Below are positions 30,052 to 47,803 of a stretch of DNA of 64,000 nt, piece by piece. Made by a program: the position numbers and the translations under genes. Each line of letters begins with the position of its first letter. Position 1 is the stretch's first letter. Under the pieces are notes generated by a model. The model worked only from the letters and a program-made list of their open reading frames with translations, did not search any database and was not told where the DNA came from. This DNA comes from a virus, in IMG/VR virus record IMGVR_UViG_3300029705_000074; one strand, 5' to 3'.

Positions 30052-30126
30052 GGGCCTTTAGCTCAGTTGGTTTAGAGCACGCGGCTCATAACCGCGCGGT
30101 CCCGGGTTCAAGTCCCCGAAGGCCCA
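30052..30126 (+). tRNA. tRNA-Met/Ile2 (anticodon CAT)
   Basis: Cloverleaf; acceptor GGGCCTT/AAGGCCC; anticodon loop CTCATAA; T-loop TTCAAGT; CCA encoded. Confidence 0.8.
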
Positions 30127-30150
30127 CCATGGACGCTTACAGCAAATCTA

Positions 30151-30222
30151 TCTGAGATAGTCAAATGGTTAAGACATTGCTCTGCAAAAGCGAAATTGCG
30201 GGTTCAATTCCCGCTCTCAAAA
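30151..30222 (+). tRNA. tRNA-Cys (anticodon GCA)
   Basis: Anticodon stem TTGCT/AGCGA, loop CTGCAAA; T-arm GCGGG-TTCAATT-CCCGC; acceptor has one C-A mismatch. Confidence 0.6.
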
Positions 30223-30238
30223 GAAGCGTCCAGTATAT

Positions 30239-30310
30239 AGGGTGGTCGGTTAATGGCTAAACCAACGGTCTCCAAAACCGTGACTCCTGGTTCGAGTCCA
30301 GGTCGCCCTG
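30239..30310 (+). tRNA. tRNA-Trp (anticodon CCA)
   Basis: Anticodon stem ACGGT/ACCGT, loop CTCCAAA; T-arm CCTGG-TTCGAGT-CCAGG; CCA encoded. Confidence 0.75.
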
Positions 30311-30327
30311 CCAGTCTTATATCATGT

Positions 30328-30356
30328 TTGCAAAACATTAAAAAATATGATATAAT
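30328..30356 (+). promoter_or_regulatory. family-B promoter inside the tRNA array
   Basis: TTGCAAAACATTAAAAAATATGATATAAT. Confidence 0.5.
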
Positions 30357-30489
30357 AAATATGTAAGGTTGAGAAAGAGAAAAGCCTTGCAGATAATCTT
30401 GGTAGTACCCAGTAAAGTGTCGGGCATTGGGAGACGGGACCAGAAGTACACAGAGTCCTTATAAAGCGTAGACACGCCAAGATACATAT

Positions 30490-30562
30490 TGCCCTGTAGT
30501 CCAGTCGGTAGAACGGCGGACTGTTAATCCGTATGTCGTGGGTTCGAGTCCCACCGGGGCAG
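30490..30562 (+). tRNA. tRNA-Asn (anticodon GTT)
   Basis: Near-identical core to E. coli tRNA-Asn (CAGTCGGTAGAACGGCGGACTGTTAATCCGTATGTC). Confidence 0.85.
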
Positions 30563-30896
30563 CCAAAACTCCCGGTTTGCCGCCATCCAACAGGAGTATA
30601 AATAACGATGTAAGACCGGCGTCAATGGCTGTTAGTGACGCAAAAGAAATAACGCAAGAATATCGCCACCACTAATGGAAACGGACGCGCGGGTGGCTTG
30701 GACAACCGTAAGAGCAATCTCGCTTCCGGGGCGAGCTGGTATCGACATGAGACGCGCGGAGTGAATTATGTTGGTGAAATTCCAACTCACCTTATAGTCT
30801 GCCTAGCGGAATAGCGGAGTAATCTGTGACTATAAGGGTAGCCGCATGAGCGGACGAATTAAGGGCTAGCGTCCGAACCACGACACGGTTCTTTAT

Positions 30897-30980
30897 GCCG
30901 GGGTGGTGGAACTGGTAGACACAGGGGACTTAAAATCCCCTGGTGGTGACACCGTACGGGTTCGAGTCCCGTCCCCGGCA
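30897..30980 (+). tRNA. tRNA-Leu (anticodon TAA)
   Basis: Class II; loop CTTAAAA; long variable arm; T-loop TTCGAGT; discriminator A. Confidence 0.85.
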
Positions 30981-30988
30981 CCAGATAT

Positions 30989-31072
30989 GCGCCCGTGGTG
31001 GAATCGGTAGACACGCCAGCTTGAGGGGCTGGTTCCCGCAAGGGAGTGCGAGTTCGAGTCTCGCCGGGCGCA
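30989..31072 (+). tRNA. tRNA-Leu (anticodon GAG)
   Basis: Class II; loop TTGAGGG; acceptor GCGCCCG/CGGGCGC. Confidence 0.85.
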
Positions 31073-31078
31073 CCATAT

Positions 31079-31149
31079 ACCGGTTTCGTATAATGGTAGT
31101 ACAAGGGACTCTGACTCCCTTGGTGGTGGTTCAATTCCATCAACCGGTG
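31079..31149 (+). tRNA. tRNA-Gln (anticodon CTG)
   Basis: Anticodon stem AGGGA/TCCCT, loop CTCTGAC; T-loop TTCAATT; discriminator G. Confidence 0.8.
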
Positions 31150-31370
31150 CCATCGGTGGAAGCAGCATATGGAGTCTTGCCACCAACCGACCTTGTACGG
31201 TGTTTGCAGGGCGAGCGCTTCGTGACAGCGTGACTTTCAGATACACCCGGTATGCTGAGACTAGTTTCAAGATGAAACTTAAACGCCGTGTACCCCTGGT
31301 TCGATGATAGCGCCCTTCCGACGGTGAATGAAGTGGAGCTTAGTAGAGGACGGCCGCCTCTGCGAAACAT

Positions 31371-31399
31371 TTGCAAAAAATTAAAAATCTTGGTATAAT
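31371..31399 (+). promoter_or_regulatory. family-B promoter inside the tRNA array
   Basis: TTGCAAAAAATTAAAAATCTTGGTATAAT. Confidence 0.5.
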
Positions 31400-31504
31400 G
31401 TATATACAAAGATAAGACACAGCACAGCAAATTTTTGGATAACAGATTTGTTTTTTGATGACAGGTTTAAGAATGGTTCAAATCCTTCGACTGTGTCTTG
31501 AGTA

Positions 31505-45584: not shown

Positions 45585-45587
45585 AGT

Positions 45588-45616
45588 TTGCAACAAAATA
45601 AAATAAATGATATAAT
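45588..45616 (+). promoter_or_regulatory. family-B promoter
   Basis: TTGCAACAAAATAAAATAAATGATATAAT. Confidence 0.5.
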
Positions 45617-45642
45617 ATATATAGAAAGTTGATAAAGGAGAT

Positions 45643-45981
45643 ATGAGTATGTATCCGTTTGAGAAGTATCGCTACTACACCGCAGGAAACAAGATTATCG
45701 CAGTCTCCACCTATGCCGGCAAGACCGTCCGTGGTATCGCCAAGTGTGCCGAGGGTGACACCTTCGACATGGAGAAAGGTAAGCAGCTGGCCGCTCTGCG
45801 CTGTGCTGAGAAAATCGCTCATAAGCGCATCGACCGTGCGAAGCGTAAATCCCGTGAAGCCGAAGCAGCAATCGAGGCTGCAGAAGCCTATGCCGAGAAG
45901 ATGGAAGAGTACGTCGATGATGCCTACGACGAGCTGGCAGAAATCGAGGACACTATCGAGGAGCTGCTCGAAGATATGTAA
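45643..45981 (+). CDS. hypothetical protein with acidic coiled-coil C-terminus
   Basis: Family-B promoter 45588-45616; SD AAAGGAG; followed by terminator 45983-45998. Confidence 0.5.
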   Translation: MSMYPFEKYRYYTAGNKIIAVSTYAGKTVRGIAKCAEGDTFDMEKGKQLAALRCAEKIAHKRIDRAKRKSREAEAAIEAAEAYAEKMEEYVDDAYDELAEIEDTIEELLEDM

Positions 45982-46002
45982 GGGGACTTTGTCCCCGATA
46001 TG

Positions 46003-46091
46003 GCGGAGTGGCAGAGCCTGGCTTATTGCACCTGTCTTGAAAACAGGAGGCCGTGATGAGCGGTCCGTGGGTTCAAATCCTACCTCCGCCG
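46003..46091 (+). tRNA. tRNA-Ser (anticodon TGA)
   Basis: Class II; anticodon stem CCTGT/ACAGG, loop CTTGAAA; discriminator G. Confidence 0.85.
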
Positions 46092-46095
46092 CCAT

Positions 46096-46182
46096 GCCCC
46101 GTAGTGTAATGGCTAGCACGAGAGTCTCTAAAACTCTAGGCCTTTGAAGCCGTCGGTCTGGGTTCGAACCCCAGCGGGGCTG
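46096..46182 (+). tRNA. amber suppressor tRNA (anticodon CTA), class II
   Basis: Anticodon stem AGAGT/ACTCT, loop CTCTAAA (C34 U35 A36). 20-nt variable arm; T-arm CTGGG-TTCGAAC-CCCAG; acceptor TGCCCCG/CGGGGCT with U1-U72 mismatch; discriminator G; CCA encoded. Confidence 0.75.
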
Positions 46183-46416
46183 CCATAAGACGCGAACAGC
46201 AAATTCTGAATGTCTTTCTTGCCATGTTTTAAGAAAATGAATTTAGCGTCTTGTGACAAATAGACCCACACAGCAAAACTTATGATTACTAAAAGTAATG
46301 CTATCAAATCGCCTCTTCAGGCTCCATTTTTCAAACATAAGGGTTCTTTGATGTAGGGTCGAGAAATATAAACATCAAACCACCCGCCCCGAACCATGGC
46401 CAGTTCGGGGTTATAT

Positions 46417-46489
46417 GCGCCAGTAGCATAGTGGCTAATGCACCTGCCTTTTAAGCAGGAAACCATGGGTTCGAGTCCCATCTGGCGCA
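46417..46489 (+). tRNA. tRNA-Lys (anticodon TTT)
   Basis: Anticodon stem CCTGC/GCAGG, loop CTTTTAA; acceptor GCGCCAG/CTGGCGC. Confidence 0.85.
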
Positions 46490-46589
46490 CCATACATCCA
46501 GATTGGCATACCCAAATAAAAAATTTTTGGTCAATATTCCACAATTTTATTATTTATTTCTTCATATATGATAGAGAGGTGAATAATAA

Positions 46590-47225
46590 ATGGCATTAAG
46601 AAAATACACAAAAGAATGGTTGGAAGAACTTTGTGCTGAGAGCACATCGGTTCGAGAAGTCTTGATTAAAGCTGGTAGAAAACCAGCGGGTGGTTCTACA
46701 GCAACTCTAAAAAAGAAGATAGCTGAATTTGGCATTGATATTTCTCACTTTTAGGGCAGGTAGTGGTCCAAAGGAAAGACCATGGCAGATGATCCTCGTA
46801 TCGGTAGTCGTGAAAAATACCAAATAGAAGATATCTTTGTAGAGAATAGCCCGTATACAAGGGCTGTTGCCAGAGATTATATTCTTCGACACAATTTAAT
46901 TCCATATGTTTGCGAGGGTTGTGGGAACAAAGGAATTTGGTTAGATGTTCCGATGGCTCTATAGCTAGACCATAAAAATGGTGTCAATAACGATCACCGT
47001 TTAGAAAATTTGCATTGGCTATGTCCAAATTGTCATGCTATTACAAAAACTTTTGCAGGTAAAAACAATAAAAAAGAAATTACTTTGGATGAAGTAGCTA
47101 AGGCTATCGAGGAAACAGGAGACTTTGGAGCCAAGAATATCTGCCTTTATCTTGGTCGTAGCTTAAATGGAAGCAATATCAATAAGGTAAAACTATTAAC
47201 CTATCAGCTCGGTTATACCGATTAA
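46590..47225 (+). CDS. HNH homing endonuclease with three in-frame TAG
   Basis: ATG after GAGAGG. CEGCGNK...L-x-LDHKNGVNNDHRLENLHWLCPNCH HNH core; TAGs at about 46746, 46755 and 46959; no TAA/TGA until 47223. The supplied ORFs are fragments. Confidence 0.6.
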
Positions 47226-47237
47226 CCGAGCAATTAT

Positions 47238-47320
47238 GCCCAAGTGGTGGAATGGCAGACACAAAAGTTTCAAAAACTTTCGTCGAAAGACATCTGTGGG
47301 TTCGACTCCCACCTTGGGCA
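47238..47320 (+). tRNA. tRNA-Leu (anticodon CAA)
   Basis: Class II; anticodon stem AAAGT/ACTTT, loop TTCAAAA; discriminator A. Confidence 0.85.
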
Positions 47321-47348
47321 CCATTAAACAAAAGAGGGGAGCAACAGT

Positions 47349-47600
47349 ATGAAGAAAAAGATTGTGGCTTTGATTGCGGCCGGCGTCCTTACGATCGGTT
47401 TGACTGGCTGCGGCAACCAGCAACTTCTCGACACAACCTATACCTTTGACAAGGCTATGATTGCCATGCCCAATGGCACTGTGGTTGAAGGCGAGGTTCA
47501 GTCCTGGAAAGACTGGGAGAACAGCGATACCGTCCAGGTCAAGATTGGCGATGTCACTTACTGGACACACAGCTCCAATGTGGTCTTGATGACCGATTAA
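47349..47600 (+). CDS. lipoprotein
   Basis: Signal peptide MKKKIVALIAAGVLTIGLTGC with lipobox; SD GGGGAG. Confidence 0.55.
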   Translation: MKKKIVALIAAGVLTIGLTGCGNQQLLDTTYTFDKAMIAMPNGTVVEGEVQSWKDWENSDTVQVKIGDVTYWTHSSNVVLMTD

Positions 47601-47719
47601 GCATCAACGCCGAAAAAGGGTTAATAGTAGGCGAGATACAGACCAGTAACCCTGAGACCTGTAACAAGGGCAACAGTGATTGTGTAAGGCAACGAACACG
47701 CTGTTAGGTATCTCTTTAT

Positions 47720-47803
47720 GCGAACGTAGTCAAGTGGTTTAAGACCCCGGCCTGCAAAGCCGTGTGCCCCGAAAGGGCGTGAGTTCGAATCTCACCGTTC
47801 GCT
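47720..47803 (+). tRNA. class II tRNA with anticodon GCA (decodes Cys codons; atypical)
   Basis: Acceptor GCGAACG/CGTTCGC; anticodon stem CCGGC/GCCGT, loop CTGCAAA; 15-nt variable arm; T-arm GTGAG-TTCGAAT-CTCAC; discriminator T. Confidence 0.5.

Follow-up and report, generated by a model that had tools for sequence, protein, structure and literature searches.

A near-complete tRNA and tmRNA array in a probable TAG-recoded gut phage, with a candidate two-armed amber suppressor, a nested tRNA gene and putative Y-RNA-like RNAs

The 64,000-nucleotide stretch of viral DNA analyzed here (the window; IMG/VR virus record IMGVR_UViG_3300029705_000074) carries, on its plus strand between positions 30052 and 47806, an array of tRNA genes together with a transfer-messenger RNA (tmRNA). 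Taken as a whole, this locus is best explained as a translation-and-RNA-maintenance island in a tailed phage of gut Clostridia that has a genome of about 149 kb and uses genetic code 15, a reading that we consider likely. A previous sequence-only reading had interpreted the region as a near-complete, phage-encoded decoding set with a tmRNA in a phage of deviant code, and our results support that interpretation. Much more tentatively, and as a reading rather unlikely to hold in all its parts, we propose that three devices built on the tRNA scaffold operate here jointly: an amber suppressor with a spare Gln arm; tRNA-in-tRNA introns processed from their ends, which would permit splicing without a dedicated endonuclease; and tRNA/Y-RNA chimeras docked on a Ro60-like protein, which would work with a vault homologue and RNA repair enzymes and would occur partly in Clostridia hosts. 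The mechanisms offered below for the suppressor arm, the nested tRNA and the hairpin-bearing module RNAs are proposals drawn from sequence comparison. As far as the literature shows, the dual-arm suppressor and the pairing of module RNAs with a DUF2828 protein appear undescribed; a nested tRNA has been seen before, in Lak phages, and never explained.

ARAGORN called 32 genes in the whole window, 31 uninterrupted tRNAs and the tmRNA, all of them on the plus strand at 30052 to 47806 and nowhere else. Rfam cmscan at gathering thresholds matched RF00005 with 52 to 76 bits in 30 of the 31 tRNAs, far above the half of the listed loci below which the sequence-only reading was to be given up. The tRNA without an RF00005 match at that threshold, Tyr-GTA (40186 to 40272), was called by ARAGORN only and shares 81% identity with tRNA-Tyr genes annotated in Streptomyces phages. 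The array decodes all 20 amino acids, one tRNA bears the amber anticodon CTA, and 31 tRNA genes within 18 kb are far beyond chance. About 30 canonical tRNA genes for 20 amino acids on one strand had been claimed; the claim stands at 31 by ARAGORN and 30 by RF00005, every anticodon listed at the time is present, and Gln-TTG (39592 to 39665), which had been missed, is added. The tmRNA, also part of that claim, lies at 35919 to 36257, covers the full RF00023 model with 95.3 bits, and has tRNA-like ends and an internal tag frame closing at a stop (DNSYFENHLAA*, from ARAGORN and Rfam); its SmpB is presumably supplied by the host. Phage genes flank the array (TerL, HNH nucleases and PHROG families), which is thus a phage-encoded tRNA cluster.

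A permissive Rfam search and the intron option of ARAGORN revealed three further tRNA genes with large insertions, at 34950 to 35120, 39668 to 39782 and 39786 to 39905. The ARAGORN anticodon calls for these genes (Arg, His and Leu) proved unreliable and were replaced by exon joins against uninterrupted orthologues. Three tRNA-like genes with insertions in the anticodon region had been noted before; all are real, but only the first looks like a plain intron-bearing gene, and the other two belong with a Y-RNA-like family that includes a fourth structured RNA, at 38799 to 38906, which had been overlooked.

The gene set was scored by codon usage, with TAG not counted as a stop. The 58 plus-strand genes end in TAA (42) or TGA (16) and never in TAG, and they hold a single in-frame TAG, at 42426 to 42428 in a tail-like open reading frame (ORF) at 41979 to 42512. 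On the minus strand, a recoded packaging module of four genes at 21 to 4417 (homing endonuclease, TerL, a phrog_3314 protein and a sigma-like protein) has six in-frame TAGs in its 1537 codons, at 195 to 197, 2031 to 2033, 2191 to 2193, 2830 to 2832, 3620 to 3622 and 4097 to 4099, and PHROG profile and tblastn matches continue across them. The TAG of the homing endonuclease (21 to 377) falls inside a conserved catalytic-region motif, IEYQGK-X-HY, and by tblastn it stands opposite Gln in two relatives and opposite TAG in the phage phAss-1. The second TAG of the sigma-like gene likewise aligns with Gln (tblastn), and the TerL TAG is opposite Gln in phAss-1 and opposite Lys in two other homologues. 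Two further sites align with Glu; the alignments other than those to Gln show Glu, Lys or Asn, and only five sites were informative. None of the tblastn alignments placed a TAG opposite Ser. These alignments fit decoding of TAG as Gln and offer no support for Ser. With in-frame TAGs in essential genes, an encoded CTA suppressor and outside genes that are compatible with both codes, the window has the features of code 15, and the absence of TAG stops on the plus strand together with in-frame TAGs on the minus strand bears out the earlier suggestion of a deviating phage code.

The codons TTA, CTA, TCA, CCA, ATA, CAA and AAA are 2- to 4-fold commoner in the recoded module, and the matching U34 tRNAs are supplied by the phage. 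By established models of recoded phages, accumulation of the suppressor would make TAG-containing late genes translatable; the U34 tRNAs would serve the A-ending codons enriched in the recoded module, and the tmRNA would rescue stalled ribosomes. A large tRNA array with an amber suppressor is expected biology in a TAG-recoded gut phage, and to this extent the locus represents one more lineage of a known group, that of stop-codon-recoded phages with suppressor tRNAs.

TerL, HNH nucleases and PHROG matches identify the source of the window as a phage, and TerL relates it to phAss-1, a code-15 phage. The minus-strand TerL matches phrog_2 and two terminase-half families (E values of 1e-54 to 1e-65) and is 57% identical to that of an unannotated human-faecal phage scaffold, 49% to those of Enterococcus phages of 134 to 142 kb, and 43% to that of phAss-1, classified by NCBI under "Caudoviricetes code 15 clade." The phAss-1 genome has 136 kb, 36 tRNAs and three tRNA-Sup-CTA genes, with TAG read as Gln in 41 ORFs (PMC10607447). 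Like phAss-1, the proposed Phassvirus and other gut code-15 phages (Babkin et al. 2023, PMC10607447), which have genomes of about 130 to 150 kb and 28 to 36 tRNA genes including tRNA-Sup(CTA), the window phage probably reads TAG as Gln in packaging and structural genes and not in other genes, shows no aminoacyl-tRNA synthetase gene of its own, and is predicted to infect gut Bacillota. The relationship is nevertheless distant: TerL homology stands at 43%, and there is no nucleotide similarity to phAss-1 beyond tRNAs. The first 50 kb of phAss-1 are without tRNAs, its array lying near 106 kb. In the phAss-1 paper (PMC10607447) the words tmRNA and intron have 0 occurrences, and it has no dual-arm suppressor, nested tRNA, Y-like RNAs or Ro60-like and major vault protein (MVP) genes, all of which have candidates in the window.

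A megablast search of the array against 50,697 phage records returned tRNA-sized matches only and no close deposited relative. Closer company was found through the AAA-type ATPase encoded within the array (37067 to 38188, plus strand), whose presence there had been stated before and was confirmed: it has 51 relatives in IMG/VR contigs of 80 to 400 kb, almost all of them inside arrays of 20 to 39 tRNAs that carry the same tmRNA, long CTA tRNA and long Cys tRNA. Four uncommon traits of the window recur among these loci: the extra arm of the suppressor, the split tRNA gene, the module RNAs that go with DUF2828, and the repair genes and vault homologue placed after the array. Related loci are cited below by L numbers, which denote IMG/VR phage loci except that those listed from L138 to L212 are bacterial contigs. 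Homologous tmRNAs occur in the arrays of L023, L024, L025, L033 and L038. Because a protein identical to the DUF2828 product of the window is found on 25 public contigs, the longest of 148,937 bp, the genome probably measures about 149 kb. The phage is thus probably large but not jumbo, which tempers the earlier remark that such a translation set is typical of very large phages.

The amber-suppressor tRNA(CTA) at 46095 to 46185 (plus strand; ARAGORN, RF00005 53 bits) is 91 nucleotides long and has the D arm (GTGTAATGG.AGCAC), the G73 and the unpaired U1.U72 of the phage Gln tRNAs. The loop of its variable arm reads CTTTGAA, beside anticodon loops of CTCTGAC and CTTTGAC in the two Gln tRNAs of the window (Gln-CTG, 31079 to 31152, and Gln-TTG, respectively). 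Nine distinct long CTA tRNAs share one cloverleaf in which 95.8% of cells are paired, a value that 0 of 500 shuffles reached. Their variable-arm helix is 100% paired, with compensatory GC/CG exchanges, and its 7-nucleotide loop has the consensus C/U-U-C/U-U-G-A-N, in which U, U and G never vary. The arm of L015 combines a complete 5-bp stem with the loop CTCTGAC. In a set of 986 tRNAs from the related loci, all 60 Gln tRNAs measure 72 to 76 nucleotides and 16 of the 29 CTA tRNAs measure 88 to 97, and the Gln-loop arm motif is essentially confined to CTA tRNAs. Judged by these alignments, the suppressor carries two anticodon arms, the second of which copies the anticodon loop of tRNA-Gln.

Gln identity for glutaminyl-tRNA synthetase depends heavily on anticodon positions 35 and 36, and CUA is without G36; for this reason we propose that the spare arm restores recognition as Gln. 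The variable-arm stem-loop would supply the Gln anticodon determinants, so that the Gln-charging system of the host would still accept the suppressor. If true, a Gln-like arm would be a new answer to the identity problem of every natural or engineered suppressor. Gln-inserting amber suppressors of the supE type likewise join a tRNA-Gln body to CUA, but their variable loop is short and normal. In outline the suppressor is similar to type II tRNAs, of which the natural ones are Leu, Ser, Tyr and Sec, and we know of no described tRNA whose variable arm reproduces another anticodon loop.

The interrupted tRNA-Thr(TGT) gene (34950 to 35120, plus strand; exons 34950 to 34982 and 35079 to 35120; RF00005 54.5 bits) holds an insert of 96 nucleotides at 34983 to 35078, in its anticodon loop between positions 34 and 35. 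The insert is itself a tRNA-like unit (RF00005 36.6 bits, z of -2.7) with a 7-bp acceptor stem and D and T arms, and it starts at the first base of its own stem and ends with a U discriminator and CCA. Excising it leaves a 75-nucleotide gene whose anticodon loop is CTTGTAA; over their whole length the joined exons are 92 to 93% identical to uninterrupted Thr-TGT genes of L041, L031 and L030, and many phages have annotated tRNA-Thr genes that match the 3' exon. The insert is of the type known from Lak phages, tRNA-like and missing from orthologous copies. Related loci have the same arrangement in Ile-TAT, Gln-TTG (twice) and Sup-CTA genes, where removal of the inner unit restores canonical 7-nucleotide loops; NCCA stands at the end of the insert in four of the five cases, and one gene (L020) is 98.6% identical to its uninterrupted orthologue after removal. 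Since Thr-TGT is the sole phage decoder of ACA and ACG, which make up 177 codons in the gene set, the gene is presumably used.

Known intron classes did not account for the insert. Group I introns have a core of more than about 200 nucleotides, and the inserts in the window measure 40 to 96 nucleotides and gave no intron or ribozyme match in Rfam at an E value of 1 or less. The archaeal and eukaryal bulge-helix-bulge consists of two 3-nucleotide bulges with a 4-bp helix between them, canonically at position 37/38; on inspection, the Thr insert has a 3-nucleotide 5' flank, a 7-bp helix and an 8-nucleotide 3' flank, and no splicing endonuclease was identified. A search of the literature on phage or Lachnospiraceae tRNA introns turned up only papers on Lak phages. 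In those megaphages a Thr(TGT) intron was predicted to be a tRNA, and the introns were called enigmatic (Devoto et al. 2019; bioRxiv 10.1101/356790, PMC6784885). Lak phages share with the window phage code 15, tRNA genes with insertions, and excision points deduced from intron-less copies. They differ in being unrelated, larger than 540 kb and hosted by Prevotella, and no mechanism was proposed for them. Here, in contrast, several tRNA species show insert ends that coincide with the 5' end and the CCA of the tRNA-like unit, and an RNA ligase is encoded by the phage.

We propose that RNase P would cut at the 5' side of the inner unit and a 3' endonuclease after its CCA, and that the ATP-dependent RNA ligase of the phage (56952 to 58235) would seal the Thr exon ends. 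Cuts by RNase P and the 3' endonuclease leave 3'-OH and 5'-phosphate ends. The nested tRNA would thereby give a concrete candidate mechanism (RNase P, 3' cut and ligase) for introns called enigmatic in 2019.

The inserts of the genes at 39668 and 39786, like those in many relatives, consist of a hairpin of 6 to 7 bp with a covarying stem and a GNNA-type loop, followed 2 to 5 nucleotides downstream by an ACAGCAA motif (hereafter the module). In the gene at 39668 to 39782 (plus strand, 46.1 bits), which has a tRNA-Asn(GTT) body, a 40-nucleotide module at 39697 to 39736 with the motif variant CCGCAA separates positions 29 and 30 on the 5' side of the anticodon stem; module inserts lie at positions 28/29 to 31/32 of that stem. 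Its joined exons give GCGGG-CTGTTAA-CCCGC, in a colinear match to the Asn-GTT genes that L048 and L017 carry without interruption. The tRNA-like gene at 39786 to 39905 (plus strand, 46.9 bits) has the variant ACAGCAG, and no canonical anticodon loop can be derived from it. The RNA at 38799 to 38906 (plus strand, z of -2.76) follows directly on tRNA-Val (TAC, 38724 to 38799) and appears to be a permuted form: its 11-bp closing stem corresponds to the two strands of the module hairpin, opened, and it continues with ACAGCAA, a T arm, a loop-closed acceptor-like hairpin and a D arm. The topology is that of YrlA, although scores with the YrlA covariance model of Rfam stayed below its gathering score of 69: 32.4 bits at best, 20 bits in another run and no hit in the bacterial locus. 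This RNA is kept in 16 other related loci, where the closing stems covary (AAGACAC/GTGTCTT, AAGACGC/GCGTCTT, AAGACAG/CTGTCTT and others).

A loose hairpin-plus-CAGCA pattern yielded mostly noise (302 matches on both strands), and a stricter pattern that included the T arm was informative. The latter matched 48 viral stretches and 77 from bacteria, which came almost entirely from Lachnospiraceae, Ruminococcus or other Clostridia, with two isolates among them. The tRNA bodies that hold the module in bacteria differ in their anticodon loops, and in many cases a second module RNA, one with no D and anticodon arms, comes next. Rfam gave no ribozyme, intron or other family on the inserts or the bacterial module RNAs. 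A gene for a DUF2828/DUF7788 protein is present in 49 of the 77 bacterial module loci, nearly always 40 to 500 nucleotides downstream on the same strand, and these proteins are 35 to 43% identical to the one encoded in the window at 47859 to 49364 (plus strand). DUF2828 homologues lie near the array in 27 of the 51 related phage loci, and in the window the module RNAs lie 8 to 9 kb upstream of the DUF2828 gene, in the same array. A near-constant tRNA body with the module and with the loops GAT, GTC, TTT, TCT, GTA, TCC, TTG and TAG was observed upstream of DUF2828 genes in L138, L148, L150, L151, L155, L157, L163, L164, L171, L172, L176, L180, L181 and L212.

The DUF2828 protein is predicted to have a Ro60-like fold, a helical ring with a vWA domain. 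With its AlphaFold model as query, the top eight Foldseek matches in PDB were all Ro60/Rsr (E values of 2e-6 to 2e-3), and the DxSxS of the vWA metal ion-dependent adhesion site is invariant (D296, S298 and S300). In our proposal, the module would be the docking site of this protein, and the RNAs at 38799, 39668 and 39786 would be Y-RNA analogues in three circular permutations, linking tRNA-shaped RNAs to the repair enzymes and vault-protein homologue encoded downstream. There is precedent for each side of such a pairing: bacterial Y RNAs mimic tRNA and flank Ro60 genes, with RNase P cutting one of them (PMC4201824), and jumbo phages are reported to carry ROT/TROVE proteins together with tRNA-like partners (PMC7824862). 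Ro60/Rsr-YrlA ribonucleoproteins (Chen et al. 2014, PMC4201824) share with the window system the ring and vWA fold, RNA genes beside the protein gene, a terminal protein-binding stem with tRNA-like T and D arms, and a link to RNA repair genes. They differ in that the window protein belongs to DUF2828/DUF7788 and not to TROVE, the likeness being at fold level only, that the hairpin and ACAGCAA motif depart from the YrlA consensus, and that the module takes three topologies, including one inside normal tRNA bodies with real anticodon loops. The module RNAs would provide a candidate RNA partner for the large, uncharacterized DUF2828 family. They would also tie a Ro60-like protein, a vault homologue and RNA repair to tRNA-shaped RNAs in phages and Lachnospiraceae, a tie that bears on the origin of Ro and vault ribonucleoproteins.

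Next to the DUF2828 gene, downstream on the plus strand, lies a homologue of eukaryotic MVP at 49740 to 52142 (phmmer E value of 8e-20 to PDB MVP; Pfam Vault_3 and MVP_shoulder). At least six related phage loci likewise have an MVP homologue, 53 to 76% identical, after DUF2828. An RNA heal-and-seal module occupies 53849 to 62379 (plus strand) and encodes an RlaP-like nucleotidyltransferase, four Metallophos phosphoesterases, an RNA ligase and an AAA_33 kinase, along with NAD synthase and a nicotinamidase-like protein of the isochorismatase family. The ligase (56952 to 58235) is DraRnl-like (phrog_968, E value of 3.5e-47) and kept throughout the phage family, with 115 matches in IMG/VR, the closest 72 to 75% identical. 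A flotillin/Band-7 protein is encoded at 62409 to 63932, near the DUF2828 and MVP genes. The composition of this downstream region is reportedly that of RNA repair systems described by Aravind's group. The tRNA cluster of phage T4 with Pnkp and Rnl1 is comparable, since it combines a polynucleotide kinase and a phosphatase with an ATP-dependent RNA ligase that can repair breaks in anticodon loops. T4 differs in having 8 tRNAs and the standard code, with no tmRNA, suppressor, interrupted tRNA genes or Ro60- and vault-like proteins, and its ligase is Rnl1 rather than DraRnl-like.

Several points weigh against the proposals made above. There are only seven TAG sites in the window, and two of them align with Glu or Lys and not with Gln. 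Ordinary CTA tRNAs of 75 to 76 nucleotides suffice in close relatives, so the extra arm of the suppressor is not essential; a type II variable arm points away from the side of the synthetase that reads the anticodon, so that transfer of identity would not be straightforward; and a reversed register, in which the second arm would be the true anticodon arm and the CUA arm the inserted one, agrees equally well with the sequence, above all in L015. As to the nested tRNA, the inner unit of L020 has no CCA and fits cutting by RNase P and RNase Z only if one cut is shifted by one base, and CCA-containing precursors in Bacillota are normally trimmed by exonucleases, which would leave the end of the 3' exon imprecise. 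For DUF2828, model quality is only moderate (a predicted local distance difference test score of 74 and a template modeling score of about 0.4), and neither phmmer nor a 24-sequence profile searched against PDB matched the protein to Ro60; it is not a TROVE protein, Pfam giving DUF2828 and DUF7788 only. Finally, the Asn-type module RNA, whose exons are perfect, could simply be a spliced tRNA.

Of the alternatives, counter-defence survives best, and it overlaps the translation-and-RNA-maintenance island rather than excluding it. On this account the array would serve mainly to replace or outnumber host tRNAs that anticodon nucleases cut or deplete, and the odd shapes (extra arms, insertions in or beside the anticodon arm) would be resistant or decoy variants and not devices for charging or splicing. 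We regard this as possible but less likely than not. A complete heal-and-seal set lies directly downstream with Ro60-like and vault-like proteins, the alterations concentrate at the anticodon arm, which is the usual nuclease target, the Asn-type module RNA is redundant with the normal Asn-GTT gene, and a comparison of jumbo phages ties tRNA provisioning and RNA repair to attack on host tRNAs (PMC7824862). Yet the suppressor and the strictly strand-specific use of TAG point to a decoding role that defence alone leaves unexplained; Thr-TGT, the only phage decoder of ACA and ACG, is uninterrupted in relatives; and no host nuclease was identified.

A second alternative concerns the modules, which might be true introns removed by an endonuclease or ribozyme and sealed by the phage ligase, with DUF2828 at most a splicing cofactor. 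Cutting out 39697 to 39736 gives the perfect Asn arm described above, colinear with Asn-GTT genes, and excision by that rule also rebuilds anticodon arms elsewhere, namely those of Ile, Asn, Tyr and Leu in relatives and those of Ile, Asp, Lys, Arg and Gly in bacteria; by established biochemistry, ligases of the DraRnl/Rnl2 type act preferentially on nicks within a stem. On the other hand, the permuted form has a closed acceptor hairpin and cannot yield a tRNA, the second bacterial RNA is without D and anticodon arms, 39786 to 39905 gives no canonical loop, and no known ribozyme or intron family matches in Rfam. The tight linkage to the Ro60-like gene also fits a ribonucleoprotein partner better, and we think it unlikely that splicing explains the modules as a class.

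It is more doubtful still that small selfish insertions have turned the three interrupted genes into decaying pseudogenes that are neither processed nor functional. The existence of uninterrupted orthologues in relatives, two homing-endonuclease genes in the array, and module flanks that in some relatives resemble short direct repeats would suit such decay. Against it, the exons are intact and 92 to 93% identical to functional-looking orthologues, exact tRNA ends delimit the inserts of five independent tRNA species, the module hairpin and closing stems covary, and an unspliced Thr gene would leave the phage set with no ACA/ACG decoder. Decoding of TAG as serine or another amino acid is very improbable: the long arm and G73 are common to the suppressor and the three Ser tRNAs (Leu and Tyr tRNAs have A73), which made a serine-type suppressor our first reading, but it was dropped after the TAG alignments, in which TAG is never opposite Ser and conserved sites are opposite Gln, and after comparison with the phage Gln tRNAs, whose D arm, weak 1:72 pair, G73 and, in the variable-arm loop, anticodon loop the suppressor repeats, the related phAss-1 moreover reading TAG as Gln.

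Other tRNAs of the array are also unusual. The last one, tRNA-Cys(GCA) at 47720 to 47806, combines U73 with a long variable arm and a D arm like that of type II tRNAs. Its sequence is 95 to 98% identical across phages whose AAA proteins are only 41 to 47% identical, and its relatives are found in L023, L024, L025, L026, L029, L030, L032, L036, L040 and L045; the type II Cys tRNA pattern was absent from 185,579 species genomes. A second, short tRNA-Cys(GCA), at 30151 to 30222, has A73, a C2.A71 mismatch and no encoded CCA, and its relatives were called with the anticodon ACA. Cysteinyl-tRNA synthetase normally requires U73. The Met-type CAT tRNA at 30052 to 30129 (RF00005 62.9 bits) appears closer to bacterial tRNA-Ile2 (the lysidine type, as in ileX) than to tRNA-Met; in that case its codon would be ATA, which is enriched 4-fold in the recoded module. 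A-wobble tRNAs besides Arg-ACG comprise Ser-AGA in the window and Thr-AGT, Pro-AGG, Leu-AAG and Ile-AAT in relatives (L012, L013, L015, L017, L018, L020 and others), which suggests an expanded use of inosine-34. Anticodon loops of 8 nucleotides occur in L013, L021, L023, L025, L030, L036 and L050, with ARAGORN anticodons TAAA and TGTT; these tRNAs are possible frameshift-type or otherwise nonstandard decoders.

The remaining tRNA genes, all on the plus strand and called by both ARAGORN and RF00005, begin with Trp-CCA (30239 to 30313), Asn-GTT (30490 to 30565), Leu-TAA (30897 to 30983), Leu-GAG (30989 to 31075), Gly-TCC (31506 to 31580), Asp-GTC (31653 to 31729), Ala-TGC (31872 to 31947), Glu-TTC (32180 to 32255), Glu-CTC (32866 to 32942) and Met-CAT (33123 to 33197). 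They continue with Ser-GCT (34156 to 34245), Thr-GGT (34252 to 34326), Ile-GAT (34445 to 34522), the A34-bearing Ser-AGA (34526 to 34617), His-GTG (35122 to 35197), Arg-TCT (35744 to 35820), Phe-GAA (36263 to 36337), Arg-ACG (36971 to 37045) and Pro-TGG (38217 to 38293), and end with Leu-TAG (39906 to 39989), Ser-TGA (46002 to 46094), Lys-TTT (46417 to 46492) and Leu-CAA (47238 to 47323).

Among the plus-strand ORFs between these genes, two are HNH-like: a 180-amino-acid HNH/HTH homing-endonuclease-like ORF at 33578 to 34120 (phrog_15471, E value of 7.8e-11) and a 135-amino-acid HNH endonuclease at 39170 to 39577 (phrog_2255, E value of 6.4e-37). The sequence-only reading had counted three homing endonucleases, and a third was not found inside the region. 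Its CYTH protein corresponds to a 160-amino-acid ORF at 36399 to 36881 (phrog_6660, E value of 1e-22), whose similarity to the CYTH (triphosphate tunnel) family is weak: it matches NeuTTM (3TYP/2FBL) over its full length at E values of 0.014 to 0.018 and has no match in Pfam or NCBIfam.

The codons TTA, CTA and TCA make up 0.9% of codons in the plus-strand genes, and this scarcity accounts for long mirror ORFs on the opposite strand. Such antisense ORFs were observed on the minus strand at 47739 to 52169, 62370 to 63950, 42600 to 43790 and 13488 to 14318, exactly opposite real plus-strand genes; the 1476-amino-acid ORF antisense to 47859 to 52142 gave no family match. Elsewhere in the window (5367 to 6901), genes for a microbial PARG, FolD and a pyrimidine-dimer glycosylase were noted. 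The repeated promoter family reported before is real as a sequence pattern: TTGCAA-N17-TATWAT has 11 copies on the plus strand, six of them within the array, and 0 on the minus strand. The copies span 18142 to 45616, share an A-rich spacer, often have a TG-extended -10, and look like a single promoter class for early or middle genes and the tRNA array.

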